Shown: positions 21,132 to 47,692 of the stretch, one piece after another
Numbering within the stretch: the first letter of the stretch is position 1
Layout: the number at the start of each line of letters is the position of its first letter
Source: a virus
Strand: one strand, 5' to 3'
Virus record (IMG/VR): IMGVR_UViG_3300036791_000462
Coordinates: 1 to 64,000 of that record
DNA: 64,000 nucleotides
The notes under the pieces: generated by a model
The model's input: the letters and a program-made list of their open reading frames with translations, nothing else
Database searches by the model: none
Told to the model about the DNA's origin: nothing
Made by a program: the position numbers and the translations under genes

Positions 21132-21201
21132 CTCCTCGGTCGGAACATCAGTGGCGAGGGCCTTTCCCTCGCACCAACATCATAGCACAGGTCGTGCGCT
21201 A
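21132..21201 (-). promoter_or_regulatory. Palindrome/-10/hairpin/CGACCGAGGAG element, copy 1
   Basis: TAGCGCACG-A-CCTGTGCTA, -10 TATGAT, hairpin GCGAGGG..CCCTCGC. Confidence 0.8.
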
Positions 21202-24200
21202 GGCGTTGCCGCCGAACCAGTTGTCACACAGCACGGTGCCGTTGCCGAGGATGCCCGGCGAACCGCCCGTGTAGGTGGTGTCCGTGAACGTCTGGATCGT
21301 CGTTCCGTTGAGCGACACGGTGAGCGTCGAGCCGTGCGCCGTCAGCCTCAGCCTGTCGCCGGGGCTCGGCGACGAGGTGTAGCCGGTGCCCAGTTGGGTG
21401 TAGTTGGTGTTGTCGCCCCGGTAGAGGTTGATGCTCCCGGAGATCCAGATGACGACGTACATGCTGAGGAGCGGGTCGGTGGTGCTGTTGGAGGAGCCCT
21501 GCATGCGCACCGCTGGGCCGATGGCGTTCCCCGTGAACGTCAGGGGCGCGGCGATCTCCGAGAAGTGATCGCTGGCGTAGGACTCGCCGGTGCGCAGAAG
21601 GCCCGAGTCGTACCCGCCGAGGGTCTGCGAAAGCTGAAGCTGGTTGCTGACGATGGTGCCCTTGGGCTGCTGGGTGAGCCAGTTGGTCCAAGCAGAACCT
21701 GGGTCGCCGTCGGCACGGTTGAAGTTGTCGGAGTAGACGACCGAGGTGTTGAAGTTCTGGAAGATCGCGTTGGCGTCCGTCTCGGTCGAGTAGTGCCCAG
21801 ACCAGAGCCGCACGAACAGCGAGCCAGTCGGAAACGGGTCGGCGATGCTGAACGCGGTTGTCCAACCGCTCCCGTCCGTTGAGTAGTCCCAGTAGATCGT
21901 GCCGCCCGACTCGCGAATCCGGACCCAGCACGGGCTCGCGGGCAGCGTGATCGGCGTCTGCCCGTGCGTCACACCCGCTGTAGTCCAGTAGATCGGCTCT
22001 ATCTGACGGGTACCGCTCGTCGCAACGAACTGCCACGCTGCCCCGCCTTGAGAGGTGCTGCCTGATGCCACGTCCAGTTCCAGTCCGGTCTGGAACGAGT
22101 TGTTGATTCCGGCTGGCGGCGGCGTCACTTGCACGGCCGCGTTTGACCCGGTCAGCGCCCATGCGTGTCGGGAGACGACCGCCGAGTTGGTGGTGCCTGC
22201 GAGTAACGCCAGCCCACTGCTCGATTCGCTGACGGTCCCGGACGTTCCCCATTTGGTGGTGTCAACAGACGCGCTCGCGAATGCGTCTTGCAGGTTTGCC
22301 ATCGGACTCATGGTGACGGTGGCGGTCGCAGCCGACGCGGCCTGCGCCACCGGCGCGAGCGCGACAGTTCCGGGCACCGCGACCGTAGCTGTGGCGCTCG
22401 CCGCCGCCCGTGCGGTGGGCGTGAGCGGCACAGGTGTCACGGCGGAGGCGTTGCCGCCCTGCCAGTTGTCGCAGGCAGCGGCACCGTTACCAGCGATGCC
22501 TGGAAGGCCACTCGTAAAGCGGGAGTCCGTGGTCGTGATGATCGTGGTGCCGTTCAGCGCCACGGTGAGCGTCGAGCCCAGAACCGTCAGCCTGAGCCTG
22601 TCGCCAGGAGTCGGCGTTGAGGCCACGCCGGTACCAAGCTGGGTGCTGCCACCGGTCGAGTCGGTAACGGCAAACAAGCCGATGTTGCCGCCATACCAGA
22701 TGGCTACGTACATGCCGTTCATCGTGCTCACCATGCGAACCGCTGGACCGATGGCGTTGCCGGTGAAGGTCAAAGGAGCCGCGACCTCGGAGAAGTGATC
22801 CGCGCCGTACGTCTCGCCGCCTGCGTTGCGAAGCAGGCCCGAGTCGCTACCGCCAGCATTGGCGAGCACCAGTTGGTTACTGACGATTGACGCGCGAGCC
22901 TGGGCGCTCCAGGTTTGCCAGTTCGGACCCGGATCACCGTCAGCGCGGTTGAAGTTGTCGCTGTAGGTGATCGCGGGCACGGTGATCGTCGCCGTGGCGC
23001 TCGCCTTCGCTTGCGCAGCGGGCGTGAGCGCCACGATGCCGACCATGCTGCCAACGGCTGGCTCGACCCAGCCTGACTGCCACTCGTGGGTGATGTTCGC
23101 CATCGCGCCGAGGGTGTGGGGAACCCCGAGGGAGGTGAGCAGCGCGTCGTAGTTCGTCACGTCCGCCTGGAAGGCGTTGTAGCCCCCGATCCAGATTCGG
23201 TTGGAGCCGGTGAGCGGTCCGCTGAGCGCCGTGACGTTCGCGGTCGAAAGCTGGTAGTTGGCGGCGAAGTTGGCCTGGTTGCCGAAAATGTCCGCGCCGT
23301 AGTCGTTGTAGTTGACCATGCCCTGGGCGGGGAAGTCCCAGGAGGCTGCCTTGGCGAAGATGTTCGGGAAGCGCAGCAGCAGATCCTGCGCCCCCATGCC
23401 TGAGCGCGAGAAGCCGATCAACAGGTTCTTTTCGCCGCCTGATCCGAACGTGCTTTTGACCCACTGGGTCACGTCGCCGACGAGGTAGGTGACGCGCTGG
23501 TCGCCGGTGTCCGTGATGCTGTTCCCGTACCAGTTCGCACCCGACAGGTTCGCGGCGATGATCGTCAGGTTGTACTTGTTGGCGAGCGCGAGCGGGACGG
23601 CCACGTCGCCCATCGGATCGCCGTAGGTCGCGCTGGGGTAGGCCTCGGTGGTGAGCATGTACAGGAAGTTGTGCGCGAGCCCAGGGTTGGGGGCCGTTGG
23701 CTGGAGCACGCGAACGGCGAGCGGGTTGCCGTCGTTGACGATTGGGGTGGTGGCGTTGTAGGTCGCGACGCCGTTGCCGTCCGTGCTCGCGAACAGGAAC
23801 GAGGCGGGCGGTGCAACCAGCGCTCTCGCTGCCGAGGCTGCGCCTGCGGTCGGAGTCAGCGCCGCCGTGCTGATCTGGGCGGTGACGTTCCCCGCCGCAA
23901 AGTTGTCGGCGGTGCATGTCGGGTAAAGCTGATAGCCCGGCTGCCCGGCGGTGCATCGGCTGTCGTTGACCGAGATCAACTCGGTGTTGTTCGCGCGGAT
24001 CGACAGGCGTGTGCCGTACGCCACCCCCGTGTAGACGGTGTTCGTCGGGTTGGGCGCTCCCGCCCCGCTGTTCTGGCAGTTCACGCTTGCGAGCGCCACC
24101 GAGTTTTGTCCGGCCTGGATGAAGTAGATCCGGAAGACCCGGCCCGGCATGAAGTAGCAGTACATGTAGCCGGTGGTCCCGTTCCACCGCAGAATCACAC

Positions 24201-25260
24201 CGATGAACGCGGAGCCTCCCAGCGTCGGCGGGACCGACCCAACACCGATCTGCGCCCACTGGTCGGGGCCGTAGGCTTCGTTGCGCTGCGCGGTGCGGTG
24301 ACCGCTTGAGCCTGAGATGTTGAGTTCGTTGGCAACGATGGTCCCGTCGGTGCTGACAACGCCCGAGAAGCTGACGGTGACGGGCGTCCACATTGACTGG
24401 CCCGCCGAGGCGTTCCCGTTGGCGCGGTTGAAGTTGTCAGAGCCAATCGCCGGGCCGAGCGTCGCGCCCATCGTCGCGTTCCCGCACGCGAAGTTGTCGA
24501 GCGTCATCGTCCCGAACGTGGTGATGCCCGGCGAGCCACCGGCGGGGATGTGGTCGTCCACAACCGCCAGTTGTGGGACGCCGTTGATCGACCCGACGAG
24601 CACGTCGCCGATCACGTAGAACTGCAGGGCGGTGCCGACCGCGAGCGCCCCGGCCAGTTGCACACCGTCGATCAGGGTGTAGGCCCCGACGTTGGTGCGG
24701 TAGTAGAAGTTCAGGACCGGCTGGGAGCCGTTGAAGTAGTAGAGCAGCGCGTATTCGGCGTTGGTGGAGACGTTGTGGCGCAGCGTCAGCCCGACGAAGT
24801 CGTTGACGACGTTGTTGACGGACCCAACGGTGCCCTGCGCAAACTGGTCGCCGCTGTAGGTTTCGCCTGAGCGATAGGCCCCCGCAAGCGACGCGCCGAC
24901 GCCGGACGCTTCGTTGGTGGCGATCACCGCGTTGCCGTCGCCGGTCGCTGTCCACCCGTTCGAGCCGCCGAGCGGCCCGTTGGCACGCTGGAAGTTGTCG
25001 GCGAAAAGCTGGTTCAGCGTCAGTTGCGGAAGCAGCGTCGGGAAGCTGACCGTCGCTGTCGCGGCCGACACCGCGCTCGCGTGCGGGCTCAGGTGCGCAG
25101 CGCCGGGGATGATCACCGCCAGGGTTGCCTGCGTCACCGCCCGCGCGACGACCGTCAGCGCAACCGGGCCGGGCTGCGGAGGAAGCACGGGGGCGGGAGG
25201 TAGCGTTGCCACCGTCGGCTGGGGCGTAAAGAGGACGAACACCCCAGAGCGGTCGATCAT
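21199..25260 (-). CDS. Large virion-appendage protein with four [SA]DNFxRAxG beta-modules and an alpha/beta-hydrolase (esterase) domain
   Basis: ATGA-coupled start MIDRSG; repeated modules; GFSRSG nucleophile elbow and THEW near 23050-23790. Confidence 0.7.
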   Translation of the reverse strand: MIDRSGVFVLFTPQPTVATLPPAPVLPPQPGPVALTVVARAVTQATLAVIIPGAAHLSPHASAVSAATATVSFPTLLPQLTLNQLFADNFQRANGPLGGSNGWTATGDGNAVIATNEASGVGASLAGAYRSGETYSGDQFAQGTVGSVNNVVNDFVGLTLRHNVSTNAEYALLYYFNGSQPVLNFYYRTNVGAYTLIDGVQLAGALAVGTALQFYVIGDVLVGSINGVPQLAVVDDHIPAGGSPGITTFGTMTLDNFACGNATMGATLGPAIGSDNFNRANGNASAGQSMWTPVTVSFSGVVSTDGTIVANELNISGSSGHRTAQRNEAYGPDQWAQIGVGSVPPTLGGSAFIGVILRWNGTTGYMYCYFMPGRVFRIYFIQAGQNSVALASVNCQNSGAGAPNPTNTVYTGVAYGTRLSIRANNTELISVNDSRCTAGQPGYQLYPTCTADNFAAGNVTAQISTAALTPTAGAASAARALVAPPASFLFASTDGNGVATYNATTPIVNDGNPLAVRVLQPTAPNPGLAHNFLYMLTTEAYPSATYGDPMGDVAVPLALANKYNLTIIAANLSGANWYGNSITDTGDQRVTYLVGDVTQWVKSTFGSGGEKNLLIGFSRSGMGAQDLLLRFPNIFAKAASWDFPAQGMVNYNDYGADIFGNQANFAANYQLSTANVTALSGPLTGSNRIWIGGYNAFQADVTNYDALLTSLGVPHTLGAMANITHEWQSGWVEPAVGSMVGIVALTPAAQAKASATATITVPAITYSDNFNRADGDPGPNWQTWSAQARASIVSNQLVLANAGGSDSGLLRNAGGETYGADHFSEVAAPLTFTGNAIGPAVRMVSTMNGMYVAIWYGGNIGLFAVTDSTGGSTQLGTGVASTPTPGDRLRLTVLGSTLTVALNGTTIITTTDSRFTSGLPGIAGNGAAACDNWQGGNASAVTPVPLTPTARAAASATATVAVPGTVALAPVAQAASAATATVTMSPMANLQDAFASASVDTTKWGTSGTVSESSSGLALLAGTTNSAVVSRHAWALTGSNAAVQVTPPPAGINNSFQTGLELDVASGSTSQGGAAWQFVATSGTRQIEPIYWTTAGVTHGQTPITLPASPCWVRIRESGGTIYWDYSTDGSGWTTAFSIADPFPTGSLFVRLWSGHYSTETDANAIFQNFNTSVVYSDNFNRADGDPGSAWTNWLTQQPKGTIVSNQLQLSQTLGGYDSGLLRTGESYASDHFSEIAAPLTFTGNAIGPAVRMQGSSNSTTDPLLSMYVVIWISGSINLYRGDNTNYTQLGTGYTSSPSPGDRLRLTAHGSTLTVSLNGTTIQTFTDTTYTGGSPGILGNGTVLCDNWFGGNA

Positions 25261-25637
25261 GCTGCTCCAGGTAGCGAAAGGTTGCCGAGGATCTGGACTT
25301 CGAGGTAGCTGTCGCTCGGGACGCGGGCGTACACCTGATCGTTGATGTCGTAGAGCGCAAACTCCACGTCGTAGATCCCGGCGGTCGCGGTGTCGGCCGG
25401 GATCCAGTCGTACTCGCACCAGCCGACGTTCGTGCCGGTGATCGCGTCGCCCTGCTGAAGCACGTTCGCTTCGGCATCGGTGGTCGGTGTCGCCCCACCG
25501 CGCTGGCGCATCACAAAGTGAACGTGGTCGGCCTGGCTGAGGTCCACCGGGGTTTTGTCGGCCTGGCTGAGAAGCACCCGGTATGGCGGCGAGGTGGCTC
25601 CCTGCTTGATCGTGAACGGGCCGGTCAAGAACGCCAT
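25257..25637 (-). CDS. BppU-like Ig-fold virion protein
   Basis: FTIKQGATSP..PVDLS..YDWIPADTATAGIYDVEF..VPSDSYLEV. Confidence 0.7.
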   Translation of the reverse strand: MAFLTGPFTIKQGATSPPYRVLLSQADKTPVDLSQADHVHFVMRQRGGATPTTDAEANVLQQGDAITGTNVGWCEYDWIPADTATAGIYDVEFALYDINDQVYARVPSDSYLEVQILGNLSLPGAA

Positions 25638-25675
25638 ACCCGGCATGCTAAGAGCGACTCGGGACGCTCCCCCAC

Positions 25676-28600
25676 TTAGCTTTCGACGCCCGCGAGCATC
25701 CCCGTGTCGATGGTGGGTTGCGCGACGACCTCAAGATCTTCGACGCTGGCGCTGTACCGGCTCAGCAGCACCGTCGTGTACATCCTCAGGTCCACGACGG
25801 CGGCACTGGTGACGCTCGCGACCACTGACGCGCTGAGCGGCGGCTGCAGCGTCGTCAGGAGCGGCGCGACCAGGATCAGGGTCGCGCGAGTGGCTGCTGT
25901 CGCCGTCGCGAAGATCGAGGTTTGCCCTGCGACCGTCATCCTCGCCTGGGTCGCTGCCTGAGCGACGGGCACGAGCGCGACGACGGTGGGAACCTCGACC
26001 GTCGCGCTGGCTCTAGACGCCGCGCTGGCAGCGGGCGCGAGGAAGGCGGCTGTCAAAACACTCGCGGCAGCGGAGGTTTGCGCGCTGGCTGAGAGCACCA
26101 TCCGCACCCTCACGGCAACGGTCGCGGTCGCGGCAGCGGTGGCTCCCGCGCGTGCGAGCAGCGGCACCGCCCCGGCGGTCGCGAACATCACCGCCTGCGT
26201 CTGCGCAAGCGCGTCAGCGGTCAGTGCGACGGGCGCGGTTGTTAGGCTGACCGCCTGCGTCTGCGCCTGGGCGTGCGCCGCGAACTGCACTGGGGCAGTG
26301 AGTGCGGCCTGCGCCTGGGTGGCGGCAGCGGCCCTGGGGCTCAGGATGCTGCCGAGGATCACCGCCGCCAGCGCCTGGCTGCTTGCTGTAGCGCTGAGGT
26401 TCAGCAGGCTCGCGGCACGTGTCGCCGCCAGCGCCTGGCTGCTTGCCCCGGCGACCGGCGCGATGCTGACAACGTTCGCGACGCCCACGGCCATCGTCGC
26501 CTGGGTGGTTGCGGCGGCGCTTGGTGCAAGCTGGACGGCGGGGATGACCGTCGCGGTCGCTTGGGCTGCGGCGCTCGCTGCGGCGCTCAGCCGCATCGGG
26601 GCCTGAAGCTGAGCGGTGGCCTGCGTCACAGCACCGGCGGCGGCAGCGAGCTTCGTGGCGGCACTCAGGGGTGCTTGCGCCTGGGTGGCTGCCTGAGCGG
26701 TCACGATCAGCGCCGTCGCGGCAGTAAGCGGCGCGAGCGCCTGGGTGCTGGCGGCGGCGCTCAACGTCAGGAACGCGACGCCGGGCACCTGCATCCCGCT
26801 TGTCGCCTGCGACGCAGCCGTGGCAGTCAGAGAAAGCTGGACGGTAACGACAACGGTCGCGAGCGCCTGCGTGGAAGCTGCCGCCGTTGGCGCGATTGGC
26901 CGGGCGGGAATGACCGTCGCCTGCGCTTGTGATGTCGCCTGGGCGGTTGGGACGAGCAGCGTCGGGGCGTTGAGTACGCCAGTCGCAGCGGTTGCTGCCT
27001 GGGCGGTTAGGGCCAGCGCCTGCGCAGCTACCGGGATCGTGATCGTCGCGCTCGCCTGCGTCGCCGCCCCGGCCGTGGCGGTGACAGCCACGGGCGCGGC
27101 GTTGATGCTCTGGACGACCGCGTAGGGCACCACGACCGGCGCGGCATTGCCCGGATCGGTCTGGACGTAGAGCCCCACGATGTCGAGCCCCTTGACGTAG
27201 GGTGCCCACGCAAGTGGCGACCCTGCCGCCTCTGTCCACGCCACTGCGTCGGGCGAATACTCCATGTGTAGGTAGCCGTCGCCCGACTCCCTGACCCGCA
27301 GCCAGATGCTTCGGTCGGCGGCGAACGCGGACGACGGAATCCCGTTGCCCGACCCGCCGGGGCTGCTGAAGCTGGCGCACCACCAGTCGCCACCAGCCTT
27401 CGGACCGCCCGCCGCAGCACTCTGGTCGTAGAACTCGAAACCGACGCTGTTGGCGTCCCACGTCTGAATCTGGAAGTACGACCACGGCGGGTTATTCGAG
27501 TCGCCTGGTGTGAAGCGCAGGTACACCGCCGAGTTCGTGAGCCGGTACCAGTTCAGCGTCTGCATCCACTCGCCGCTGGTACCGCCCGAGTTCAACTGCA
27601 CCTGCCCGTTGCCTATCGGAGTCGCGCCATCGCCACTGAAGCTCCACTGGCTCAGGTCGTTGAAGGCATCCCTGAAGCCCGAGATCGGACCGAGGACCGG
27701 AAAGACGTGGCACGTCGCCTTCGTCTTTGCTGTCGCGCTCACCGTGAGCGGCTGTGCAACGACCGGGATCGTGACCGTCGCGACTGCCTGCGTGGCTGCT
27801 CCTGCCTGCACGATGATCGACGCCGCTCCGGTAACGACCGCGACTGTCAAAGCACTCGACGCGAGCGCGGTCGCTGTCAGCGGCTGCTGAGCGGCGACGA
27901 GCCCAGTCGCCTGGGTGCGCGCGGCAGTATTCGCGATCAGCAAGCTCGGCGCGGTGAGCGCGACCGTCGCCTGCGTCGCAGCGTTCGCGACAGCCGTCAG
28001 CGGAACGCCGCCGACGGACATGGTCGCCAGCGCGCTCGTCGCTGCGTACGCTGCTACGCCGCCGACGCCCGCCACGGTGCCCGCGCTGTAGTGGGCGAGC
28101 ACCTGCGTCGGCGTCAACACGTAGTTGTAGATCGCAGCCTCGTCCAGGACGCCGTCGAAGAACTGGGTGGTGCCGGTACCCCCCCAGCCGACCATCAGGT
28201 CGTGGCTCTGGTCGGAGACTGTGAGCGTCGTGTCACCAAGCGTCGTCACTGCTGCGCCATCGACGTACATCACGCATCCGTTCGCGACTCCGGACCGGAA
28301 CGTGAGCACCACATGGTGGGCGTTGCCATCGTTGAGATTCGGCCCGTTGGTGCCGTACCCGCCGCCGCCGCTGTTGAAGAACGCGAACCCGGTCCAGTCG
28401 AAAGCGTCGATGTAGCCGTTCGGATTGACGAAAATCCCGAATCCGTACTGCTTTACGATCACCGCCTGCAACTGGCCGCTCGGCGGCGGCGAGGCCAGCT
28501 TGAACCAGCCCTCGACAGATCCCGTGGTGAGTTGGAACGCGCTGGGATTGCCGCAATCGACGTAGCCGCTCGTGCCGTCGAACGTCGTTGCCTTGTCGGG

Positions 28601-32982: not shown

Positions 32983-32995
32983 CTCGCACCGTGGG

Positions 32996-35068: not shown

Positions 35069-36894
35069 ATCCCCTCCTCTCCCTGCGTCGTGGTTTGCAG
35101 TTCCTTGAGCTTCGCCTGGTCGGCCTCCAGCCGGTTGATCAGCCTGGTCAGCCGGTCGATCTGCTCCTGGTAGTAGCGCTTCCAGTCGCCGCTGTCGGCG
35201 TGGCTCAGCGAGTCGTTGTAGTCGTTGTAGCTCGCGCGAGCCGCGTCGATCTGCTCGTCCAGCATCGTGGGGTCGAGCCGCCGCAGACGGTCCTGCTCGC
35301 GCTCAGCGGCGGTTTTCGTGACCTCGATCTCGGTGGCCTCAGCGTCAGCCTCGACCACCGTGATCGAGCGGAGGTTGGTCACCTGGGTGACCTTCCCGCC
35401 GCCGTTGTAGGAGTCCGTCTCGTGCTTCTTGATCGTCGCGCTGCAGGTGACCGTGGTGCCCTGGTCGATCCCGCCAGCACCCCACCAGATGATCCCGTTG
35501 CCGTCCCGGTCATAGCCCTTCGTCAGCCACCGGGTGCCGTACTGGCCCTCGAAGCTCTTGACGAACGTGACGGTGAAGGTCAGGCCCTTGATCCGGTCGC
35601 CAACGGAGCCGATCCACTCCGAGCCCGCCGTCCGCTTGGCCTCCAGTTGACGCTGCAACTCCCGCTGGTAGGCCCCGATGGCGGAGGCGACGAACCCGTC
35701 GCCCTTCTCGCCCAGGTAGTCGGCGCGGCAGTAAGTGGTCAGGTTGTGCTCGAACTCTGAAAGCTCGTCACGCTCGCTCAGGTCATCGCGGACCCAGTCC
35801 AGGGCGGTGGTCGCGATCTCGCGATCCTCGTCGGTGGTCGCGACCCGCAGCTTCGCGTTGCGCTCCAGGTAGTTGTCCTTCGCCCGGTCGGCGGTCGCGC
35901 CGTAGTTCCGGGTGAAGTCCCCGTAGGAATCGTCCCGCGTCCACCGGGGCGTCCACCCGAACTCGCGAATCATCGCCGCGACGTTCGTCAGGAAGTCCCG
36001 TGTGGGGATCGCGATCCGGCCGCCGCCGATCCCGACATCGCCGAACCCGTCGTCGCCGGACTCGAACCCGAGGTCGGCGTACAGCGCCTCCAGCCACTCG
36101 GCCCACGCTGCGACACGCTCGGGATTGTGAGCGCCGGTGTAGTCGCCCAAGCAAGTTGACCCAATCTGCCTCAGTTCGCCGGTTGCGACCTCGAACAGGA
36201 TGTAGGTCTGCTTGCGGCGGCGGTTGAAACCGCAGTGGTCGCAGTCAGGCCCGGCGTGCCGGTAGCTGGTCAGGTCAGCGGCCTCAACGGCCGCAGCGGC
36301 CTCCTCACCGATCTTGTTCTTGAGGAACGTTCCGACGGGCGCGCGGCGGATGCCGACACTCTCGTCAGCGCCCTGGTCGGCGTCGTGATCCAAAGTTGCA
36401 AGAAAAACCCACCCCCCAATCTGCGGCGTCTCGCCGTTGACGGTGATGAAGGTGAAGTCGATGACCCGCTCGACGTAATCGCGGGTCGTGCCCTCGACCG
36501 CCAGCAGCGCCGCCGACACACTGTCGGTGGCGGGGCGCATCTCGCGGCGGACCTCCTGGTCCTTCTCGTCAGAGACGGTCAGCGTGATCTCGCCGGTCCC
36601 GAGCTTGACGGCCTTCTTGTTCAGCTTGGTGATCCGCTCGCGAAGCTCGGCCATCTTGGAGTCAACAACGCGGAAGACGCGCCCGCCGACCTCCTCGCGC
36701 AGCGCGGCGACCTCGGCGATCAGCCGGTCGGCCTTCGCCTGGGCGGCGATCACGGTGGGGTGCTCGTAAACGTTGACGCGCTCACGGGCGCGAGCGTCAA
36801 GGCTCCAGTAGATGTCCTCGTAAGCGACAGACACCTCGGTCCGCGCTTCACGCGCATCCTGCTGGCGCTCGTAAACAGTTCTCAGGTCAGTCAT
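35065..36894 (-). CDS. Conserved phage protein with Zn-binding motif and C-terminal OB-fold-like domain
   Basis: CDHCGFNRRR..QIGSTCL; SEWIGSVGDRI..YG..IIWW..ATIKKH. Confidence 0.65.
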   Translation of the reverse strand: MTDLRTVYERQQDAREARTEVSVAYEDIYWSLDARARERVNVYEHPTVIAAQAKADRLIAEVAALREEVGGRVFRVVDSKMAELRERITKLNKKAVKLGTGEITLTVSDEKDQEVRREMRPATDSVSAALLAVEGTTRDYVERVIDFTFITVNGETPQIGGWVFLATLDHDADQGADESVGIRRAPVGTFLKNKIGEEAAAAVEAADLTSYRHAGPDCDHCGFNRRRKQTYILFEVATGELRQIGSTCLGDYTGAHNPERVAAWAEWLEALYADLGFESGDDGFGDVGIGGGRIAIPTRDFLTNVAAMIREFGWTPRWTRDDSYGDFTRNYGATADRAKDNYLERNAKLRVATTDEDREIATTALDWVRDDLSERDELSEFEHNLTTYCRADYLGEKGDGFVASAIGAYQRELQRQLEAKRTAGSEWIGSVGDRIKGLTFTVTFVKSFEGQYGTRWLTKGYDRDGNGIIWWGAGGIDQGTTVTCSATIKKHETDSYNGGGKVTQVTNLRSITVVEADAEATEIEVTKTAAEREQDRLRRLDPTMLDEQIDAARASYNDYNDSLSHADSGDWKRYYQEQIDRLTRLINRLEADQAKLKELQTTTQGEEGM

Positions 36895-36898
36895 CAGT

Positions 36899-36954
36899 CT
36901 CCTCGGTCTGCGGCTCTCTTACCGCACTAACATCATAGCACAGATCGTGCGCTA
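36899..36954 (-). promoter_or_regulatory. Repeat element, copy 2
   Basis: TAGCGCACG-A-TCTGTGCTA, TATGAT, hairpin TGCGG..CCGCA, AGACCGAGGAG. Confidence 0.8.
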
Positions 36955-37530
36955 GGAGCGCGCCGCCAGGATCGTCTTCAGATCCTCGTCGGAGTTCAGA
37001 GCCCCCCACACGTCGTTGCGGCGCAGAATCTCCAACAGCGCCTGCTTCTCGACGGCGATCCCAAAGTATTGGGCGCGCTCCAGCGTCGGATGCTCGCCGT
37101 CACGCTCGCCAGTGCCATCGCACCACCGGCACGTCACCCACCAGGTGCTCTCGTCACCCTCGTCGTAGCCGTCGTCGTCTTCGTCAAGCTCGATCTCACC
37201 GTTGTCGCAGAAGCCGCACTCGGTGCCGCCGTCGCGCCACGTGACCTCCAGGGCCTTCCCCTCGGCGTTGATGACCCAGGCGTGGTGGATGAGTATCCCC
37301 GAGCGGCTGGCGAACCCCTCGACGTAGGTCAACTCGCCGTCGCTGGCGAGCGCGGCGGTCGCGGCGTTCTGGAAGCACTCTCTCAGCTTCCCGTTCGGGG
37401 CTGACGCCTCACGGTCAAGCTCGTACACCTGGCCGTGCTCCAGGACTGCTGCCTGGAGGTTCTGTTCGCGCGGAACACCCAGGCGCTCCCAGCCTTCGGC
37501 TTCCCAGCGCAGCGTCTCCTCGATGTTCAT
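36952..37530 (-). CDS. Putative transglutaminase/papain-like protein with inserted Zn finger
   Basis: ECFQNA..YVEGFA..HHAWV..LEVTW; CGFC and CRWCDGTG. Confidence 0.55.
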   Translation of the reverse strand: MNIEETLRWEAEGWERLGVPREQNLQAAVLEHGQVYELDREASAPNGKLRECFQNAATAALASDGELTYVEGFASRSGILIHHAWVINAEGKALEVTWRDGGTECGFCDNGEIELDEDDDGYDEGDESTWWVTCRWCDGTGERDGEHPTLERAQYFGIAVEKQALLEILRRNDVWGALNSDEDLKTILAARS

Positions 37531-37682
37531 CGCCGCGCCTCGAACGCCAGTGCGATCATCTCCGCGACGATCTCGTCGGCGCGAGCCCGGTCGGCGCATT
37601 CGTAACCCCAGTGCAGCCGCGTGCGCTCGTAGCGCAGTTCGCGCAGACGCCGTTCGGCGGCGGCTCGCTGCTGGTCGGTCAT
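37527..37682 (-). CDS. Small hypothetical protein
   Basis: MTDQQRAAAERR.. after CGACCGAGGAGG. Confidence 0.6.
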   Translation of the reverse strand: MTDQQRAAAERRLRELRYERTRLHWGYECADRARADEIVAEMIALAFEARR

Positions 37683-37687
37683 GCTGC

Positions 37688-37746
37688 CTCCTCGGTCGCT
37701 GCGGGGCCTTTCCCCACACCAACATCTTAGCACACGACACGCGCTT
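37688..37746 (-). promoter_or_regulatory. Repeat element, copy 3
   Basis: AAGCGCGTG-T-CGTGTGCTA, TAAGAT, hairpin TGTGGGG..CCCCGCA. Confidence 0.8.
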
Positions 37747-37859
37747 GAGAGGACGGCCCGGTGCTGGGTGCAATGACCTTCTTCCCAGTCACCGGCTTAC
37801 GCGGTGTCCAGTCGACCGCCCTCCACCCTACTGTGGCCGCACCAGCCCCAAAGTCGGGA

Positions 37860-39155: not shown

Positions 39156-39169
39156 GCACCAACATCACA

Positions 39170-39544: not shown

Positions 39545-39546
39545 GT

Positions 39547-41385: not shown

Positions 41386-41412
41386 ACCCGGAAGCGTATG
41401 GCCGCCGGGAAG

Positions 41413-41577: not shown

Positions 41578-41634
41578 TCACGCCTCGCGGGGTCTAACCC
41601 AGATGATGCACGCGCGCATCATTTGCGGTTCTAA

Positions 41635-42024
41635 TCAGATGGTGCCGAGTCCGCGCGTGAAGTCCGGGAGCGGACGTTTGGTCAAGCAGTGCCAGGCGTG
41701 CGCGACCTCGGCGATGTTGACGTGTTCCTCCATCGGGGGGATCACGACGATCCCGAGCGCGTTCGGGCCGCAGACCTCGTGGAACACGTCGCGCGTCTGT
41801 TCCCACGTCGGCATCTTGTCATCGTCGCGGGATAGCGACACGTGCTCCCAGACCTCGCCGTCCTGCTCGACCGCGATGGAGTGGATCAGGTGCAGCCTGC
41901 GCGGCCCGTGTCGCCACGCACCGAGCCCGTCCCCGCCCTTGGTGACCTGCTTCCAGCGGTTGCGCTGCAGGTGTGCGCTGGCTGCCCGCAGGCGATCCTG
42001 CAGCGCGGCGACATCGACCATCAC
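41635..42024 (-). CDS. Conserved phage protein (WEHVS..PTW family)
   Basis: WEHVSLSRDDDKMPTWEQ..PPMEEHVNIAEVAHAW. Confidence 0.65.
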   Translation of the reverse strand: MMVDVAALQDRLRAASAHLQRNRWKQVTKGGDGLGAWRHGPRRLHLIHSIAVEQDGEVWEHVSLSRDDDKMPTWEQTRDVFHEVCGPNALGIVVIPPMEEHVNIAEVAHAWHCLTKRPLPDFTRGLGTI

Positions 42025-42488
42025 CGCACCCTCATCGAGCGTTGCCACTGCCTCCGCAGGGCGTTGCGGATCTCCGGGGCGGTCGCGCTTCCGGCGTCAC
42101 CCAGTTCGCGAGTCAGCCGCAGACGCTGCGCGGGGTTCAGCTTTGAGAGCGCGTTCTCGACGGTCTTCGACAGGTCCGGATTGTCGAGCAGCGCGTTGCC
42201 CATCGCCGTCAACCGCCACCGTTGCGTCCACACCCACGTCCCGTCAGTCTGCTCGATCCGCTCGCGCTCACCGCGTTCGATCCACCCGTACCGGCGCAGC
42301 CACGCGAGGCGCGGGCCGACGCCGGACTTGCGGTCTGACTGGTCCATCTTCTCGCCCAGTTGGACGCGCACGGCGTAGGTCGAGGTCCACCCGTTCTCGT
42401 CAGCGAGGTCGTCCAGGATTCCGAGGATCTCGGAGTCGGAGATCCCGAATAGGCTCGCGTCAACGCGACCGTTTCGTGAGGCGCTCAT
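42021..42488 (-). CDS. Winged-helix-like DNA-binding protein
   Basis: VGPRLAWLRRYGWIER..WRLTAMG. Confidence 0.55.
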   Translation of the reverse strand: MSASRNGRVDASLFGISDSEILGILDDLADENGWTSTYAVRVQLGEKMDQSDRKSGVGPRLAWLRRYGWIERGERERIEQTDGTWVWTQRWRLTAMGNALLDNPDLSKTVENALSKLNPAQRLRLTRELGDAGSATAPEIRNALRRQWQRSMRVR

Positions 42489-42964
42489 GCGTTCAGAGCC
42501 TCACGGGTCAGGCGGTAGAACTTCGAGTTGCCCTCGATCCGGGATACGCGCAGCACGTTGCGCTGGCGAAGCTCCTCGAACGCGAGCGCGCTCATCCCGG
42601 AGGTCATCGTCCCGCCGGACGGCAACTGGCTGTACGCGGCCCGGAGGTCAACCTGGCGGAACTCCTCGTGGTCGGCGGCGTACTCGCGGACCAGCGTTTC
42701 GATCTCACCGATGCGTTCCTCGCTCAGCTTCGACGGCTTCGTGCGCTCGCCCGACTGGCCTTGCTTCGGCCTCCCGGCTTTCTTCGGCTCCCCGGTGAGC
42801 GCTGCCAGCGCTTTCTCGTAGGTGCGTAGCTCGGTGACGATCTTGTCGCGCACGAGGTCGTGTTTCGCGAGCGCGTTCTCCCGGTCGGTGACCAGCGCGT
42901 GTAGTTGCAAAGCGATCTCGCTCGCCTGCGGCAGCGCGGGAGCGTCGCCGTTCTCATCGGACAT
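42485..42964 (-). CDS. Coiled-coil plus winged-helix-like protein
   Basis: ALAFEELRQRNVLRVSRIEGNSKFYRLT; TATACT -10 upstream. Confidence 0.5.
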   Translation of the reverse strand: MSDENGDAPALPQASEIALQLHALVTDRENALAKHDLVRDKIVTELRTYEKALAALTGEPKKAGRPKQGQSGERTKPSKLSEERIGEIETLVREYAADHEEFRQVDLRAAYSQLPSGGTMTSGMSALAFEELRQRNVLRVSRIEGNSKFYRLTREALNA

Positions 42965-43022
42965 CTGGGGTTCCTCTCGGTCGGGCATACAGACACTCGC
43001 GAGTATAAACGCCCGACGTGAG

Positions 43023-43772
43023 CTACGCGGTCCTGCGTGTCAGCGCGTCGGACCCGATTCGCAGCAGCCGCTCCCTGACGTTCCCGGCGAGGATCACGAC
43101 ACGCTTGGCGTCGAAGTCCGCAGCGAACACCTCGGGCACCAGTTCGCGCAGCCGCGCCGGGCTGCCGTCGTACTCGTCGCCCGCGAGATCCTCCACGATG
43201 GCCTGAGCGCTCGTGTGCGGCCCCGTGCCGCCGTAGCCGAACTCGAACTGGCCGTCTTCGCCGGGCGCGAGGTCGCGGCGCTCACCGTCGGCGTCAACGT
43301 GGTACAGCCGTACCTCGGTTTGCTTGGGTCCGTCGGCGTTGAACTTCTCGGCCTGCTCGCGCTCCCAACCGTACACGTTCACCCACCGCTCGACGGTGAT
43401 CGGCTCGCGGACGATCTCGAAGTGCTCACCGAGGGGTTTCAGCCAACCGGCGGCGTACACGTACCCGTATGACGCCTGGGTCGAGCCGACGATGATCCCC
43501 TGCTCATCCTCGTAGAGCACCAGTTCCTGATCGAAGTCCTGCCGAAACATCCAGTAGTTCTCGCCGAGCCACTCGCGCATCTTCGCGATAGCGCCGGTGC
43601 CCTCCGGTGAGCCGTTCAGCCACGCGACCAACTTGCTCTTGGCCTCGTCGTTCTCGGCGACGAGATCCTGACGGTCCCAGACGAGGTCGCTCGGGGCGAT
43701 CAGCCGCGCGCCCCACGCCGTTTTGATGTCTTTCGGAACGCCGGTCCGGCGTCCGTAGGCCAGGTCATCCAT
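43023..43772 (-). CDS. Hypothetical protein with C-terminal DUF6166-like motif
   Basis: FEFGYGGTGPHTSAQAIV. Confidence 0.6.
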   Translation of the reverse strand: MDDLAYGRRTGVPKDIKTAWGARLIAPSDLVWDRQDLVAENDEAKSKLVAWLNGSPEGTGAIAKMREWLGENYWMFRQDFDQELVLYEDEQGIIVGSTQASYGYVYAAGWLKPLGEHFEIVREPITVERWVNVYGWEREQAEKFNADGPKQTEVRLYHVDADGERRDLAPGEDGQFEFGYGGTGPHTSAQAIVEDLAGDEYDGSPARLRELVPEVFAADFDAKRVVILAGNVRERLLRIGSDALTRRTA

Positions 43773-43777
43773 GCTTC

Positions 43778-43824
43778 CTCCTCGGTCGTTTCTCTACATC
43801 CAGCTTAGCACACAACGCGCGTTA
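43778..43824 (-). promoter_or_regulatory. Repeat element, copy 4
   Basis: TAACGCGCG-T-TGTGTGCTA, TAAGCT, CGACCGAGGAGG. Confidence 0.8.
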
Positions 43825-44091
43825 GAAGCAGGTGTCGCAGGTGCAGTGTGGCTGCTTGCCGCTTCTGCAGGTCGCCATCGCTTTGTGCCTCGGCATGAAC
43901 GGGTCGAGCAGCGGGTGCTCAACGATCTCGCGACACTGCTCGCAGTTGGGGTCGTAGATGCCGAGCTTCTCCCAGCGCGCGAGGCGCTCCTCGCGGGTTT
44001 CGCTGGCCCCGAACGGCGAGATCGCGAACACGGTCTGGTTGCCGTTCTCGTCAAAGCGCTCGACGCTGCGGTCAATCAGCGGTTGTCCCAT
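43822..44091 (-). CDS. Cys/His-rich small protein
   Basis: CEQC..PRH..CRSG..HCTCDTCF. Confidence 0.6.
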   Translation of the reverse strand: MGQPLIDRSVERFDENGNQTVFAISPFGASETREERLARWEKLGIYDPNCEQCREIVEHPLLDPFMPRHKAMATCRSGKQPHCTCDTCF

Positions 44092-44450
44092 CAGTCCTGC
44101 CACCTCCTGGTTCCGGCTTCCTCGAACTCCTCGCGGGTGATCTCCTGCACCTCGGCGAGCGGCACGAACCCCGGCTCGCCACGCGGCTCCATCACCGAGT
44201 AGCACCACGCACAGAAGCTCTCGCGCATCGACCAGGCGTAGCGGGCGGAGTCGGCATCCTCGCCGTACAGACGGATGCTGTACCCGTAGATCGTGATCGC
44301 CTTGGCGGGTGCCATCGAGACGTACACGATCCCGTCGCGCTCGAACGGCTCCTGCGGGTTGCCGCCCCAGCGGCGTTTGAAGTAGAGCGGCTGGCCGTCG
44401 AGCGCGAACGGCGCGTCCGGCTCGGCCTGGTAGTCGAAGGTCGTGCTCAT
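44091..44450 (-). CDS. Hypothetical protein
   Basis: Coupled ORF; WCYSVMEPRGEPGFV. Confidence 0.6.
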   Translation of the reverse strand: MSTTFDYQAEPDAPFALDGQPLYFKRRWGGNPQEPFERDGIVYVSMAPAKAITIYGYSIRLYGEDADSARYAWSMRESFCAWCYSVMEPRGEPGFVPLAEVQEITREEFEEAGTRRWQD

Positions 44451-44683
44451 GCGTTCGCGAGATCGTCGTGCATCCGCCCGATCTCGGTCGCCCGGCGGAT
44501 CTCGCGCAGGTCCGCCTGATCCTCCAGGTAGCGGGCGTTGAGTCGCATCGCGGCGATCTCCGCGTCAGCGAGCGACGGGTAGGTCTTCGCGTTCTGGGTG
44601 CTGTTCGGGTAGCGCTGGTCGATCACCTTGAAAAACGGCGTGTTCAGCGCGTAGGTGGTGGTCGCCTCGTATGGCAGGTTCAT
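44447..44683 (-). CDS. Hypothetical protein
   Basis: Preceded by CGACCGAGGAGG. Confidence 0.6.
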   Translation of the reverse strand: MNLPYEATTTYALNTPFFKVIDQRYPNSTQNAKTYPSLADAEIAAMRLNARYLEDQADLREIRRATEIGRMHDDLANA

Positions 44684-45088
44684 CTAGCCCTCCTCGGTCG
44701 TGGTTTGCAGCCGGTCGATCAGCGCGTCGATCCGCGCGTCCATGAGATCGCCCAACGTGGGATCCCTGTAGCGCCACGTGGCGAGATCGAAGTCGAAGTC
44801 GTAGAAGGCGATCAGCGCCCGCTGCGCACGGTCAAGACGCTGGAACGCTCGGGTCGCGTGCGACCGGTTCGCGGGGCTGCGCCCGTCCTTGACCGCCACC
44901 ACCTGGAACGTCGCGTCGGCTTCGAGCACCGTGCGCACGAGCGCTAGCTCGCGCCGGTAGAGCTTCGCGTCGTCACCGTCGGCGCGGAACATCCGGCGCT
45001 GCTCGGCGGCGATCAGCTTGACCTTCGACTGCTGCTCGGCGCTGTACGCGCGAGCCCAGGCGACCTTGCGTTTCATCAGCTTGCTCAC
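44684..45088 (-). CDS. Hypothetical protein
   Basis: 134-aa coupled ORF. Confidence 0.6.
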   Translation of the reverse strand: MSKLMKRKVAWARAYSAEQQSKVKLIAAEQRRMFRADGDDAKLYRRELALVRTVLEADATFQVVAVKDGRSPANRSHATRAFQRLDRAQRALIAFYDFDFDLATWRYRDPTLGDLMDARIDALIDRLQTTTEEG

Positions 45089-45264
45089 GCGGCGGTCTGC
45101 TCCTCGTAGAACCCCTGCGCGCGCTCCTGTGTGGAGAAGCGGTGAACCTGGATCGCCGCGCCCTGCTTGATCGTCACGATCCAGTCGGGCGTCCGTTTGG
45201 TGGTCGCGGTTCGGTGGTCGATGTACGGAGCGGTGACGGTCCGCTCAGAAGTGGTGCTCATCAT
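45085..45264 (-). CDS. Small hypothetical protein (59 aa)
   Basis: MMSTTSERTVTAPY.. directly after CGACCGAGGAG. Confidence 0.6.
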   Translation of the reverse strand: MMSTTSERTVTAPYIDHRTATTKRTPDWIVTIKQGAAIQVHRFSTQERAQGFYEEQTAA

Positions 45265-45266
45265 GG

Positions 45267-45324
45267 CTCCTCGGTCGGTGCGGCCTCATCACCGCACCTA
45301 CATCATAACACACGATGCGTGTTA
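45267..45324 (-). promoter_or_regulatory. Repeat element, copy 5
   Basis: TAACACGCA-T-CGTGTGTTA, TATGAT, hairpin GGTGCGG..CCGCACC. Confidence 0.8.
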
Positions 45325-45519
45325 GGACAAGTCCGCCATGCAGGTCGAGAGCATCTCGCGCACGATGTCGCGCTGCTCGTCACGATCCAACCCCACCCAG
45401 GCGTACAACCAGAGCGCGCTCTTGGCCTCGGCGTGCAGCCGCGTCTGCTCGATCCGATCCTCGATGGTGCCGAACTCGATCCCCTCGGCGAGCATCACGT
45501 CGATGTGCTCAGGGTCCAT
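45322..45519 (-). CDS. Small hypothetical protein
   Basis: MDPEHIDVML..KSALWLYAW. Confidence 0.55.
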   Translation of the reverse strand: MDPEHIDVMLAEGIEFGTIEDRIEQTRLHAEAKSALWLYAWVGLDRDEQRDIVREMLSTCMADLS

Positions 45520-45585
45520 TGCAGGCGCAGTCTCGCACCTCCCAACCCTGAAAACTAGAGCGTCTGACGTGAGCTTTCCTCGCAA

Positions 45586-46011
45586 TTAGCGGGATTCGGC
45601 AAGCTCGCGCGTCTCGATCCCCTCGCGCTCGATCAGCGACTTCGCGAACGAGATCGCCTGGCGCGCTCTGTTGCGCCGGAAGCAGTAGCTCTCCGCCCCC
45701 TCCAACTCATCGCAGTCGAGCCAGCCGGTGAACACGTCGCTGCCCATCCACTCCTCGATCTGCTCGTCGGTCGTGAGCCCGTTGATGTCGAGCGCCCGGC
45801 CGTCCGGCAGGGCGACGTAGACGTGGTCAAGCTCGCCGTCGCGCCAGGCTCCCATCAGTTCCGCGCCGGGGATCAGTTCGCACAGCGCGAGCGCAAGGCT
45901 GTGGCAGTGGCCGCGTGAGAACACGTCATGCGCGTTCTCGTCCAGGACGCCGGGTTCAAGCTCAATCTCTGTGTCGCGCCCGAACCATCCGTTGTAGGTC
46001 CAGGTGGACAA
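45586..46011 (-). CDS. Putative papain/transglutaminase-like protein
   Basis: GHCHSLALAL..DHVYV..LDING, a Cys-His-Asp pattern. Confidence 0.55.
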   Translation of the reverse strand: MSTWTYNGWFGRDTEIELEPGVLDENAHDVFSRGHCHSLALALCELIPGAELMGAWRDGELDHVYVALPDGRALDINGLTTDEQIEEWMGSDVFTGWLDCDELEGAESYCFRRNRARQAISFAKSLIEREGIETRELAESR

Positions 46012-46018
46012 TTTCTAC

Positions 46019-46079
46019 CTCCTCGGTCGGTTGGAGGGGGAGCGTTTCCCACTAACATCCTAGCACAAAACGTGCGCTA
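46019..46079 (-). promoter_or_regulatory. Repeat element, copy 6
   Basis: TAGCGCACG-T-TTTGTGCTA, TAGGAT, CGACCGAGGAGG. Confidence 0.8.
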
Positions 46080-46083
46080 GCGG

Positions 46084-46107
46084 AAACTATTCATGCTTGA
46101 ATAGTTT
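46084..46107. repeat. AT-rich perfect inverted repeat
   Basis: AAACTATTCA-TGCT-TGAATAGTTT. Confidence 0.8.
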
Positions 46108-46220
46108 GCTGCAGCTACGAGAAGCGGCCGTTGACCAGAACCAAGCAGATCGCGTACGTCGCAAAGACGCAGAGGAAGTACAGGAAGGTGCGGCTGGTCA
46201 AACCGCCCGGATGGTACGGC

Positions 46221-46514
46221 TCAGGCTCGGCAGAGCCCCAGATACGTTGCCGCCGCCGCGATCACGGTCGGCAACCCGATCCAGAAGATCAGCGGGTCCA
46301 CCGTCACCGCGAGAATCGAGAGGATCGGAACGGCGACCCAGCGCGCGAGCCCCCACACGGCGCGAGCCTCGGCTCCGTGGTCGCGCAGGCGTTCGGCCAG
46401 TTCCTGCGGCCCCGGTTCTGGGGCGCGCAGACGTTGGCGTTCGGCCTGCTCCTCCAGACGCCGCCGTTCGGCTCTGCGCCCGCTCGCTCTGCCGAGTAGG
46501 AGCCAGCCAAGCAT
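46221..46514 (-). CDS. Membrane protein
   Basis: Two C-terminal hydrophobic helices; TGATG overlap. Confidence 0.55.
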   Translation of the reverse strand: MLGWLLLGRASGRRAERRRLEEQAERQRLRAPEPGPQELAERLRDHGAEARAVWGLARWVAVPILSILAVTVDPLIFWIGLPTVIAAAATYLGLCRA

Positions 46515-46813
46515 CAGCGGGAGGGCACCTCGCCGTCGAGCGGCACCCCGAAGCGCTGCAGGATGACCATCACGCCCCACAGCACCTTCAGCAGGTCAAC
46601 CTCAGCGTCCGCGACAGGCCCAACGGCGGTGTAGTCACCAGTCGAGGCCTCCAGGTCGTACGCGCGTTTCCACGCTCTCGCGAACGTGTTGTCGTCCATG
46701 TGCGCAAGCGCGCTCGACACGTCCTTGCCTCGGTACTCGCACTCGGCGCAGTGGTCGTGAAGGATCTGCCGGGCGTCGAACCCGTCGAGCCCGTCGTGGT
46801 AGCTATGCGTCAC
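46514..46813 (-). CDS. Hypothetical protein
   Basis: Preceded by CGACCGAGGGGGAG; HDHCAEC. Confidence 0.6.
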   Translation of the reverse strand: MTHSYHDGLDGFDARQILHDHCAECEYRGKDVSSALAHMDDNTFARAWKRAYDLEASTGDYTAVGPVADAEVDLLKVLWGVMVILQRFGVPLDGEVPSR

Positions 46814-47210
46814 GGTTCTCCCCCTCGGTCGGCTTGTCGGGAAAACGCTGCAAATACTGCGGCGAAGCGATCAGCTTCGCCCCCTGGTTCAGCACCTCGG
46901 TAACGGAATGCCACGAGTCGTACAGGTACACGGGAACGTCCACCGTCAGCGCTTCGCCGAGCCCCAGCGTCAGCGCATCGTCACCGAGATCAACCTTCAA
47001 CTGCTTGGTGAACCACAGGTGCGCAGCGCAGCGGTAGAGCGGGTCATCGCGCATCAGATTCTGGGCCAGGATCCGAAAGACGGCGATGCCCTTCGGGTCA
47101 AGCTGAGGGATCACCTCCAGCGGAAGCTGCTTCTCGTAGCCGTGCTCTCTGCCCAGCGCGTACACCGTGAACACGCCCTGCAGATCGACTGCTTTGGCGT
47201 CGTCAAGCAC
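46803..47210 (-). CDS. Hypothetical protein
   Basis: Coupled ORF with probable GTG start. Confidence 0.55.
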   Translation of the reverse strand: MLDDAKAVDLQGVFTVYALGREHGYEKQLPLEVIPQLDPKGIAVFRILAQNLMRDDPLYRCAAHLWFTKQLKVDLGDDALTLGLGEALTVDVPVYLYDSWHSVTEVLNQGAKLIASPQYLQRFPDKPTEGENRDA

Positions 47211-47643
47211 GTGGCGTCCTGTCCGGCATGCGCTGGATGAACTCGCGCTCGCGCAGCGCCGGGTAGATGCTCGGCGCGTGCTCGCGCCTGCCGTTGCGCC
47301 GCCCATCCTCGTAGGCGGGCGAGCGGTCAAACTCGGGGTCGTCGCTGTGACGCTGGTAGAGCTTGGTCGCGAACTCTGGGGCACCGAACGCGAGCGTCAA
47401 CGCTGGCTGGTCGCGCGTGAAGTTCTCCAGCGCGTCAGCCATCCCGTCAGCGAACCCCTGCCCGTACGGGATCAGGTCTTCGTTCAGCAGCGGATCGTTG
47501 GGGTGGGGTTCGCGCTGCTGCTGGTAGCGCATCGCGGCGAACGCGGCGTTTGGTGCGGTGTAGCCAAGCTGCAGCTTCTCGCGGTCGCCGCGCATCAGCG
47601 CAGCGGTCGTTTCGCGCAGCGACATCTCATACGGTTCAGCCAT
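47203..47643 (-). CDS. Hypothetical protein
   Basis: MAEPYEM.. after CGACCGAGGAG. Confidence 0.6.
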   Translation of the reverse strand: MAEPYEMSLRETTAALMRGDREKLQLGYTAPNAAFAAMRYQQQREPHPNDPLLNEDLIPYGQGFADGMADALENFTRDQPALTLAFGAPEFATKLYQRHSDDPEFDRSPAYEDGRRNGRREHAPSIYPALREREFIQRMPDRTPRA

Positions 47644-47649
47644 CCGGCT

Positions 47650-47692
47650 CTCCTCGGTCGGGTAGACCAAGGGTAGCACACGACAGGAGCTA
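47650..47692 (-). promoter_or_regulatory. Repeat element, copy 7
   Basis: TAGCTCCTG-T-CGTGTGCTA, TACCCT, CGACCGAGGAG. Confidence 0.7.

Follow-up and report, generated by a model that had tools for sequence, protein, structure and literature searches.

What does it mean when a short palindrome, repeated along a viral genome, begins exactly where the gene in front of it ends? The question is raised by IMG/VR record IMGVR_UViG_3300036791_000462, a 107,110-bp viral contig (labeled G000) of which bases 1 to 64000 are hereafter called the window. The completeness of the contig is estimated at 86%, with about 14% of the genome absent. A preliminary description of the window had reported that a palindrome opens on the stop codon of the preceding gene in 5 of 10 copies, and it suggested that the repeats double as recombination points that insert or exchange gene cassettes, by analogy with integron attC sites, with simple genome compaction as a fallback. 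We conclude that the palindrome is probably the front of a gene-start cassette, made up of a promoter, a hairpin, and a ribosome-binding site, that is reused about 20 times per genome. The overlap with stop codons would then reflect compaction, and recombination at the repeat would be occasional.

Nearly all genes in the window, which has a G+C content of 66%, lie on the minus strand, and the repeat is read here along that coding strand. When IMG/VR was scanned for the exact pattern, about 20 further contigs proved to have the cassette unit, of which five (G001 to G005, 45 to 125 kb) were taken whole; two of these have direct terminal repeats and are complete. The five relatives share 68 to 74% identity with G000 across 8 to 36% of its length, with an alignment cover of 20 to 36% for four largely collinear relatives and only 8% for G004. 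G001 and G002, at 84% identity, form the closest genome pair. An iterated weight matrix yielded 118 de-duplicated copies from the six genomes, and these are the basis of what follows.

The copies share a consensus 19-bp imperfect dyad, TAGCRCACGWYGTGTGCTA, and their alignment reveals that this palindrome is the upstream end of a longer gene-start unit of 50 to 75 bp. Matches to the dyad with up to 3 mismatches number 16, against 2.96 expected, and none of 100 shuffles reached 16. By weight matrix, the whole 107-kb contig has 18 copies, and the window has 10, of which 8 are good and 2 weak. Dyad positions 13 to 23 read TGTG-C-TAnnnT, such that the right arm forms an extended -10 element without a -35 element. 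Conservation is high at T18, A19, and T23 (91 to 99%, with T23 at 91%) and at the TGTG of positions 13 to 16 (84 to 100%); the hexamer is often TACAAT, TATGAT, or TATCCT, and the 4 scored positions 5' of the dyad carry zero information. Most copies continue with a GC-rich hairpin that starts 6 to 8 nt past the hexamer, where the transcript is predicted to begin. Of the 18 G000 copies, 13 have a leader whose best fold is at or below -9 kcal/mol, and the stems vary in sequence while their pairing is kept. After the hairpin comes a strong ribosome-binding block, usually CGACCGAGGAGG or a variant of it, and then the start codon, which lies a median of 65 nt from dyad position 1 (interquartile range, 55 to 70 nt). 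Predicted starts agree with gene calls (e.g., 36894, 43772, 45264, and 47643).

Intergenic copies account for 105 of the 118, a same-strand gene starts within 150 nt in 91, and the orientation of the copies tracks that of the genes (17 of 18 in G000). Each copy brings an extended -10 element and a ribosome-binding site of its own to the gene that directly follows it. The two arms of the dyad are complementary at 6 to 7 of 9 positions. Their commonest mismatch, found in 65 of the 118 copies, sets G5 opposite T15, and this T15 belongs to the TGTG element.

At all five sites cited in the preliminary description, the palindrome does start at the stop of the upstream gene, including that of the 4-kb gene at 21199 to 25260. 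The minus-strand open reading frames (ORFs) concerned are 21199..25419, 36952..37773, 43822..44208, 45322..45585, and 47690..48247. In each, the stop is the outermost triplet of the dyad, TAG or TAA, and the sites read C-TAG/TAA-CRCAC...TGTGCTA. The count of 5 in 10 copies needs one correction: the other copies in the window open with AAG (37728) or with a TAG or TAA that no recognizable gene uses (46061 and 57525).

Across the six genomes, 91 copies have a recognizable upstream coding frame, as judged by local G+C content at third codon positions (GC3). Exactly 38 of these frames stop at dyad position 1, and no other single position claims more than 5. A further 27 stop at positions -13 to 0, and only 9 end inside or past the dyad. 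The excess at position 1 is large both against a uniform spread over 20 codon slots (binomial p = 1.6e-25) and against a frame-based null of 0.15 (p = 7e-10). The stop triplet is not a property of the overlapping copies alone, as copies that do not use it still have a stop triplet at positions 1 to 3 in 40 to 52% of cases, where chance would give a few per cent. The TAG is a component of the dyad, in which it mirrors the CTA at the beginning of the -10 element. Where the triplet is used, T1 is present in 100% of copies, and TAA or TGA is tolerated, which weakens the dyad but keeps the stop. The overlap is also labile; for instance, one small gene stops at position 1 in G002, and its orthologue in G001 stops two codons before that point.

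These observations are best explained by the fallback of the preliminary description, genome compaction, given the 38 stops at position 1 and the mere 9 of 91 in or past the dyad. Under this mechanism, coding sequence would be kept out of the dyad while spacers are trimmed to a minimum, so that upstream genes would come to end on the dyad's TAG. That triplet would be the last permissible end for an upstream gene, and about 40% of upstream genes stop there.

The extended -10 element in the right arm would most simply be read by the host housekeeping sigma factor, and we conclude from its sequence that the gene-start cassette is a predicted promoter for host polymerase. A sigma factor was found in a single relative, G003. 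A search of G000 to G004 for a T7-type RNA polymerase (PF00940) returned no match, as did the control set, so the power of this search is low.

The left arm may serve a second purpose. It is a mirror image of the right arm, set about 10 bp farther upstream at a place where a bound protein dimer would block RNA polymerase, and the center of the dyad lies about 20 bp upstream of the predicted start of transcription. Because of this position, we infer that the left arm is an operator half-site for a putative phage regulator and that the dyad combines a promoter with an operator. No compensatory changes link the two arms among the 118 copies, which argues against selection for a hairpin.

Two sites past the end of the window, at G000 105549 to 105583 and 93027 to 93061, have a dyad that scores on both strands, and both (sites 93035 and 105557) are used divergently. 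At 105549 to 105583, each strand has its own ribosome-binding site and start, making back-to-back divergent promoters over one dyad, a layout as expected of a regulatory switch region. A bidirectional promoter was considered as a general rule for the dyad and was rejected, as the bases that would complete a -10 element on the opposite strand are not conserved.

The closest known analogue of the cassette is the promoter-early stem-loop (PeSL) of T4-like phages, which is alike in layout and unrelated in sequence and lineage. A PeSL runs from the upstream stop codon through a sigma-70 promoter and a stem-loop, often placed over the -10 box, to a ribosome-binding site and start (PMC2839356), and PeSLs mediate indels and the formation of mini-circles (PMC2839356, PMC4122927). 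Their promoter and terminator activities, as well as the mini-circles, have been shown experimentally (Arbiol et al. 2010, PMC2839356; Comeau et al. 2014, PMC4122927). The present repeat is likewise an intergenic cassette with a stem-loop and a predicted sigma-70-type promoter. It reaches from an upstream stop to the next start, as seen in the 38 position-1 stops and the 65-nt median span, and its stem-loop features are the folded leader and a dyad that overlaps the -10 box. There are dozens of copies, some of which flank variable small genes, and two-copy and one-copy variants occur among relatives. The two systems differ in that the present cassette has an extended -10 element, with no -35 element or AT-rich upstream region, and in that its dyad is a fixed 19-bp sequence with a second hairpin in the leader, whereas the PeSL stem is a variable run of poly-G and poly-C. 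The lineages differ also, T4-like phages in one case and a high-GC myovirus family of roughly 120 kb in the other.

Do the repeats then drive gene shuffling? The strongest version of this idea makes the cassettes the main engine of shuffling, able to excise, insert, invert, and swap modules, with the stop codon in the repeat letting modules move without truncating their neighbors; PeSLs have been described as units, running from upstream stop to start, that mediate such exchanges (PMC2839356, PMC4122927). Individual junctions do look recombinant. Contig L039 has a single copy, whose upstream flank corresponds to that of the G000 copy at 91048 and whose downstream flank corresponds to that of the copy at 87195, which in G000 are two copies 3.85 kb and eight genes apart. 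The slot between a 165-aa and a 609-aa gene holds one to three copies across 11 contigs (L083 has one, five other contigs have two, and three contigs have three). Genes at 92.2 to 92.9 kb of G000 lie between two copies, and their homologues in G001 to G003 occupy another slot that is likewise bounded by copies. In the window, conserved genes enclose two groups of genes, between copies 37728 and 36936 and between copies 45306 and 43806, for which the four collinear relatives show no syntenic counterpart. When G001 is compared with G002, the start of homology coincides with the dyad's left edge four times, and once homology stops after the hairpin. Moreover, homology is confined to a single flank in 83 of the 105 copy pairs, taken between genomes, that show any flanking homology.

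Counts over whole genomes give a mixed answer to the question of whether synteny breakpoints in relatives fall at the repeat, a check that the preliminary description had proposed. Synteny is broken at 179 of 209 repeat-bearing junctions and at 1126 of 1631 others (86% versus 69%), or, when nucleotide flanks are compared, at 82 of 105 versus 649 of 1013 (78% versus 64%); this excess, with an odds ratio of 2 to 2.7, rests on crude gene calls and on genome pairs that are not independent. However, in the closest pair, G001 and G002, breaks are no commoner at repeat junctions than at the rest (5 of 12 to 13 versus 44 to 49 of 94 to 101). Homology blocks end in cassette regions in 8.1% of cases, against 8.0% expected for any gene boundary and 2.3 to 2.7% for random positions. 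Of the 39 clean indels, 31 are free of copies at their ends, and in no case do copies lie at both ends. Nor are the copies found preferentially beside unique genes, in contrast to PeSLs, which associate with orphan genes; 14% of unique genes, 16% of core genes, and 22% of translocated genes adjoin a copy, and the differences are not significant. Even within slots that copies bound, gains, losses, and reordering of genes occur at junctions without a repeat.

Because the stop abuts the dyad and the cassette fills the intergenic space, any viable joint at a gene boundary maps in the repeat, so breakpoints that look precise are weaker evidence than they seem. An analysis of breakpoints within the cassette proved too noisy, at 70 to 80% identity, for placement to the nucleotide. 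The suggestion that the repeats double as recombination points thus retains the L039 junction, the slot of varying copy number, and the modest excess of breaks in its favor, while breakpoints overall track gene boundaries. The further suggestion that the repeats explain the patchwork of late genes and accessory islands fails on the rates of block ends, indels, and adjacency. We consider it unlikely that the cassettes are the main shuffling engine, and a PeSL-like role in recombination is occasional at most.

A 219-aa gene and its cassette are inverted relative to their neighbors in G001 to G003 compared with G000 (G000 99765 to 100532, G001 74838 to 75604). In G001, the inverted piece has cassette copies at both ends. 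At its far end in G000 stands a unit of a promoter-like TGCTATAAT, a hairpin, and CGACCGAGGAG, without the left arm of the dyad.

Which enzymes could act at the repeat? The preliminary description saw no recombinase in the window and called for a search of the rest of the genome; none has come to light in the contig or in four relatives. Six-frame searches of G000 to G004, two of them complete, found no match to the tyrosine recombinase family PF00589, with positive controls in 14 of 14 genomes, and none to the serine recombinase family PF00239, for which the controls responded as well. A Pfam scan of 72 further proteins also found neither kind of recombinase. Four relatives do encode a RecT-family protein of roughly 400 aa (G001:64757-65293, G002:75345-75881, G003:49054-49596, and G004:8855-9361). 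By collinearity, its gene falls within the roughly 21 kb absent from the incomplete G000 contig, which itself encodes SSB and RusA. Two studies report that phage annealing proteins recombine diverged sequences (PMC3945230, PMC5499656). Homologous recombination at the cassette is therefore plausible. A scattered repeat of 30 to 70 bp may occasionally be used as a short-homology crossover point, the likely agent being an annealing protein of the RecT type. Such crossover would be a side effect resembling that of PeSLs and not the work of a dedicated system for cassette capture.

A more ambitious possibility joins regulation to mobility. The dyad would be the operator of a single phage regulator that gates about 20 promoters, and units of promoter and gene would in addition move by RecT-driven exchange, excised circles included. 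We regard this combination as doubtful. If true, it would amount to integrase-free gene capture in high-GC phages, with one repeat serving together as promoter, operator, stop codon, and recombination homology.

Several points weigh against the gene-start cassette as we interpret it. The stops at position 1, at 42%, stand only marginally above a ceiling of 33% for frames that read into the motif (p = 0.057), and because the one barely exceeds the other, compaction is favored rather than proven. A standard -35/-10 scan calls just one of these sites as a promoter; since TGTGCTAnnnT comes without informative upstream positions, a two-hexamer scan misses such sites. An unrecognized phage polymerase or sigma factor could read the motif instead of the host enzyme. 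Imperfect arms without compensatory change fit binding by a protein without proving it. Also, the L039 junction comes from a metagenome assembly, in which a misjoin at a repeat is possible.

The dyad might instead act in RNA, as a 3' hairpin of the upstream message (a terminator, an attenuator, or an element of processing or stability) with the stop codon in its stem and the promoter-like arm incidental. It can form a stem of 6 to 8 bp with a loop of 3 to 5 nt, the common G5/T15 mismatch would be a G-U pair in the sense-strand RNA, and the stem-loops of PeSLs both overlap the -10 box and act as terminators (PMC2839356). However, an intrinsic terminator requires a U-tract after its GC-rich stem; such a tract is missing here, and a terminator scan of 36000 to 48000 calls none at the six copies in that interval. 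The bases directly 3' of the dyad belong to the -10 hexamer instead, and T23, which completes that hexamer, is highly conserved even though it lies outside the stem. The arms do not covary, and positions 5 and 15 form a T-T pair in 23 copies. In 27 of the 118 copies, moreover, no same-strand upstream frame ends within 150 nt, and two G000 sites are used divergently. The lack of covariation led us to reject the RNA hairpin as a reading of the dyad, and an RNA-level element as a whole seems to us very improbable.

Integron attC sites are 57 to 141 bp long, are conserved in structure and not in sequence, and carry the core sites RYYYAAC ... GTTRRRY. They need an adjacent IntI tyrosine recombinase, which recognizes them as a folded single strand, and they bound promoterless cassettes that share a common promoter. 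The present repeat resembles them as an imperfect palindrome at the 3' end of small accessory genes, and it differs in having no GTTRRRY core, no IntI, and a predicted promoter in each cassette. That the palindrome is the site of a dedicated cassette-capturing recombinase, as attC is for IntI, is so improbable that we set it aside: the repeat does begin at stop codons and bound small variable genes, and about 14% of the G000 genome lies outside the contig, but searches of the five genomes and 72 additional proteins found no tyrosine or serine recombinase, the repeat is a fixed 19-bp sequence in place of a long structured site, every cassette is predicted to have its own promoter, and most breakpoints ignore the repeat. 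The analogy drawn in the preliminary description is therefore abandoned; the repeat is real and family-wide, the integron-like interpretation is wrong, and compaction, the alternative it had listed, is right to the extent of being the favored reading.

Two other repeat families invite comparison. Cluster O mycobacteriophages have a 17-bp dyad, TGTTCGG-N3-CCGAACA, in more than 30 copies per genome, whose function is unknown (Cresawn et al. 2015, PMC4351075). It too is a short palindrome with many copies in a high-GC phage, mostly between genes or near their starts. It differs in sequence, lies outside predicted SigA promoters, and shows no preferred orientation, and stop-codon overlap was not reported (PMC4351075). 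Separately, one Cluster O gene is flanked by an unrelated 17-bp direct repeat that is single in relatives (PMC4351075). The halovirus HF2, as its abstract describes it, has intergenic repeats of 29 or 58 bp that are AT-rich and carry promoters (PMC8707807). On that description, it resembles the present case in reusing one intergenic repeat family as virus promoters and differs in that its repeats are AT-rich and belong to an archaeal virus; the abstract mentions neither a dyad nor a stop overlap.

The window copies listed here are all on the minus strand. Copy 1 (21126..21201) has its dyad at 21183 to 21201, with the TAG at 21199 to 21201 as the stop of the 1353-aa gene 21199-25260; 3' of the dyad follow the extended -10 element TGTGCTATGAT, the hairpin, CCGACCGAGGAGG, and the start at 21126, which heads a block of head and tail genes. 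Copy 2 (36894..36954; dyad, 36936 to 36954) supplies the TAG stop of gene 36952-37530 and leads through its hairpin and ribosome-binding site to the start, at 36894, of the conserved 609-aa gene, whose best homologue is 75% identical. Copy 3 (37682..37746) has a dyad, at 37728 to 37746, that opens with AAG and overlaps no stop, the upstream gene having stopped 115 nt earlier; genes 37527-37682 and 36952-37530, headed by this copy, are genome-specific. These two genes make up a variable module (36952..37682) between copies 3 and 2 that is missing from G001, G002, G003, and G005; its counterpart in relatives consists of other genes plus one to three cassette copies.

Copy 4 (43772..43824; dyad, 43806 to 43824) lacks the hairpin; its TAA is the stop of gene 43822-44091, and its start, at 43772, is that of a conserved 249-aa gene. 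Copy 5 (45264..45324; dyad, 45306 to 45324) has the hairpin, provides the TAA stop of the conserved gene 45322-45519, and heads five small genome-specific genes. A second variable module (43822..45264), between copies 5 and 4, is formed by five small genes without a syntenic counterpart, and four relatives have different genes in this slot. Copy 6 (46011..46079; dyad, 46061 to 46079) opens with a TAG used by no recognizable gene and leads to a TTG start at 46011. Copy 7 (47643..47692; dyad, 47674 to 47692) has a degenerate left arm and no hairpin and heads two genome-specific genes; the conserved gene 47690-48049 stops at its TAG. Copy 8 (57488..57543; dyad, 57525 to 57543) opens with a TAA that is unused as a stop, the upstream frame having ended 25 nt earlier. 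A weak copy at 56230..56284 has the left arm TATCACC, followed by TGCGTTATGCT, CGACCGAGAGGAG, and an ATG at 56230.

Parts of the cassette also occur in other settings. The block GACCGAGGAG is found 28 to 35 times in each of G000 to G003 and so outnumbers the promoter dyad, which means that it also precedes genes within operons. The distant G004 keeps the dyad promoter and has only 2 copies of GACCGAGGAG. A plus-strand cassette in the region G000 68654 to 69122 (L009:4654-5122) lies about 380 nt 5' of a tRNA-Glu(CTC) gene at 69049 to 69122, and in G001, a cassette copy stands immediately 3' of a tRNA end.

What kind of virus carries the cassette? G000 encodes a tail sheath, a tape-measure protein, and a capsid/protease-type head protein, as well as a large terminase past the window, and it therefore belongs to a contractile-tailed phage. 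It represents an uncultured high-GC myovirus family of roughly 120 kb with terminal repeats. When 8 kb of the window were compared with cultured phages at near-identity, no DNA match emerged, and the capsid and terminase have cultured relatives that are only 24 to 28% identical. Neither the capsid protein nor a sheath alignment, each used to scan bacterial genomes, revealed a prophage relative. Among the homologues of the GH19 lysin, most are metagenome proteins without a name; a few carry actinobacterial names and one a myxobacterial name, which is indecisive as to the host. A metagenome scan for close relatives of the repeat-rich region of the window found no match. Compared with the known RNA families of Rfam, the window gave no hit at gathering thresholds.

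Other features of G000 stand apart from the repeat. At 21199 to 31660 (minus strand), giant genes of 1353 and 1994 aa are packed with internal direct repeats of 45 to 300 nt. The 1994-aa protein has two Laminin_G_3 (concanavalin-like) domains, and the 1353-aa gene has a counterpart in none of the relatives, which suggests that the two products are fast-evolving fiber or decoration proteins. Large minus-strand genes also encode proteins with a Zeta-toxin-type kinase domain (48746 to 51553), an ADP-ribosyltransferase domain (L009:13053-14381), and a cytidylate-kinase domain (L009:14642-16468). The tRNA-Pro(GGG) that ARAGORN calls at 17366 to 17465 (minus strand) lies within the coding ORF 17135-17521 and, with its unusual length of 100 nt, is probably a false positive.

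More than 10 large contigs from public metagenomes fall in this myovirus family, of which no member has been cultured, and the cassette offers a working transcription map for it. About 20 predicted promoters that share one dyad point to a single regulator of the whole program, a candidate that is open to direct search. The family also provides a quantitative test of the idea that promoter repeats drive phage mosaicism, with the answer that they do so occasionally here and are not its main cause. Finally, the case illustrates how a fixed regulatory motif can shape the ends of genes in a compact genome.

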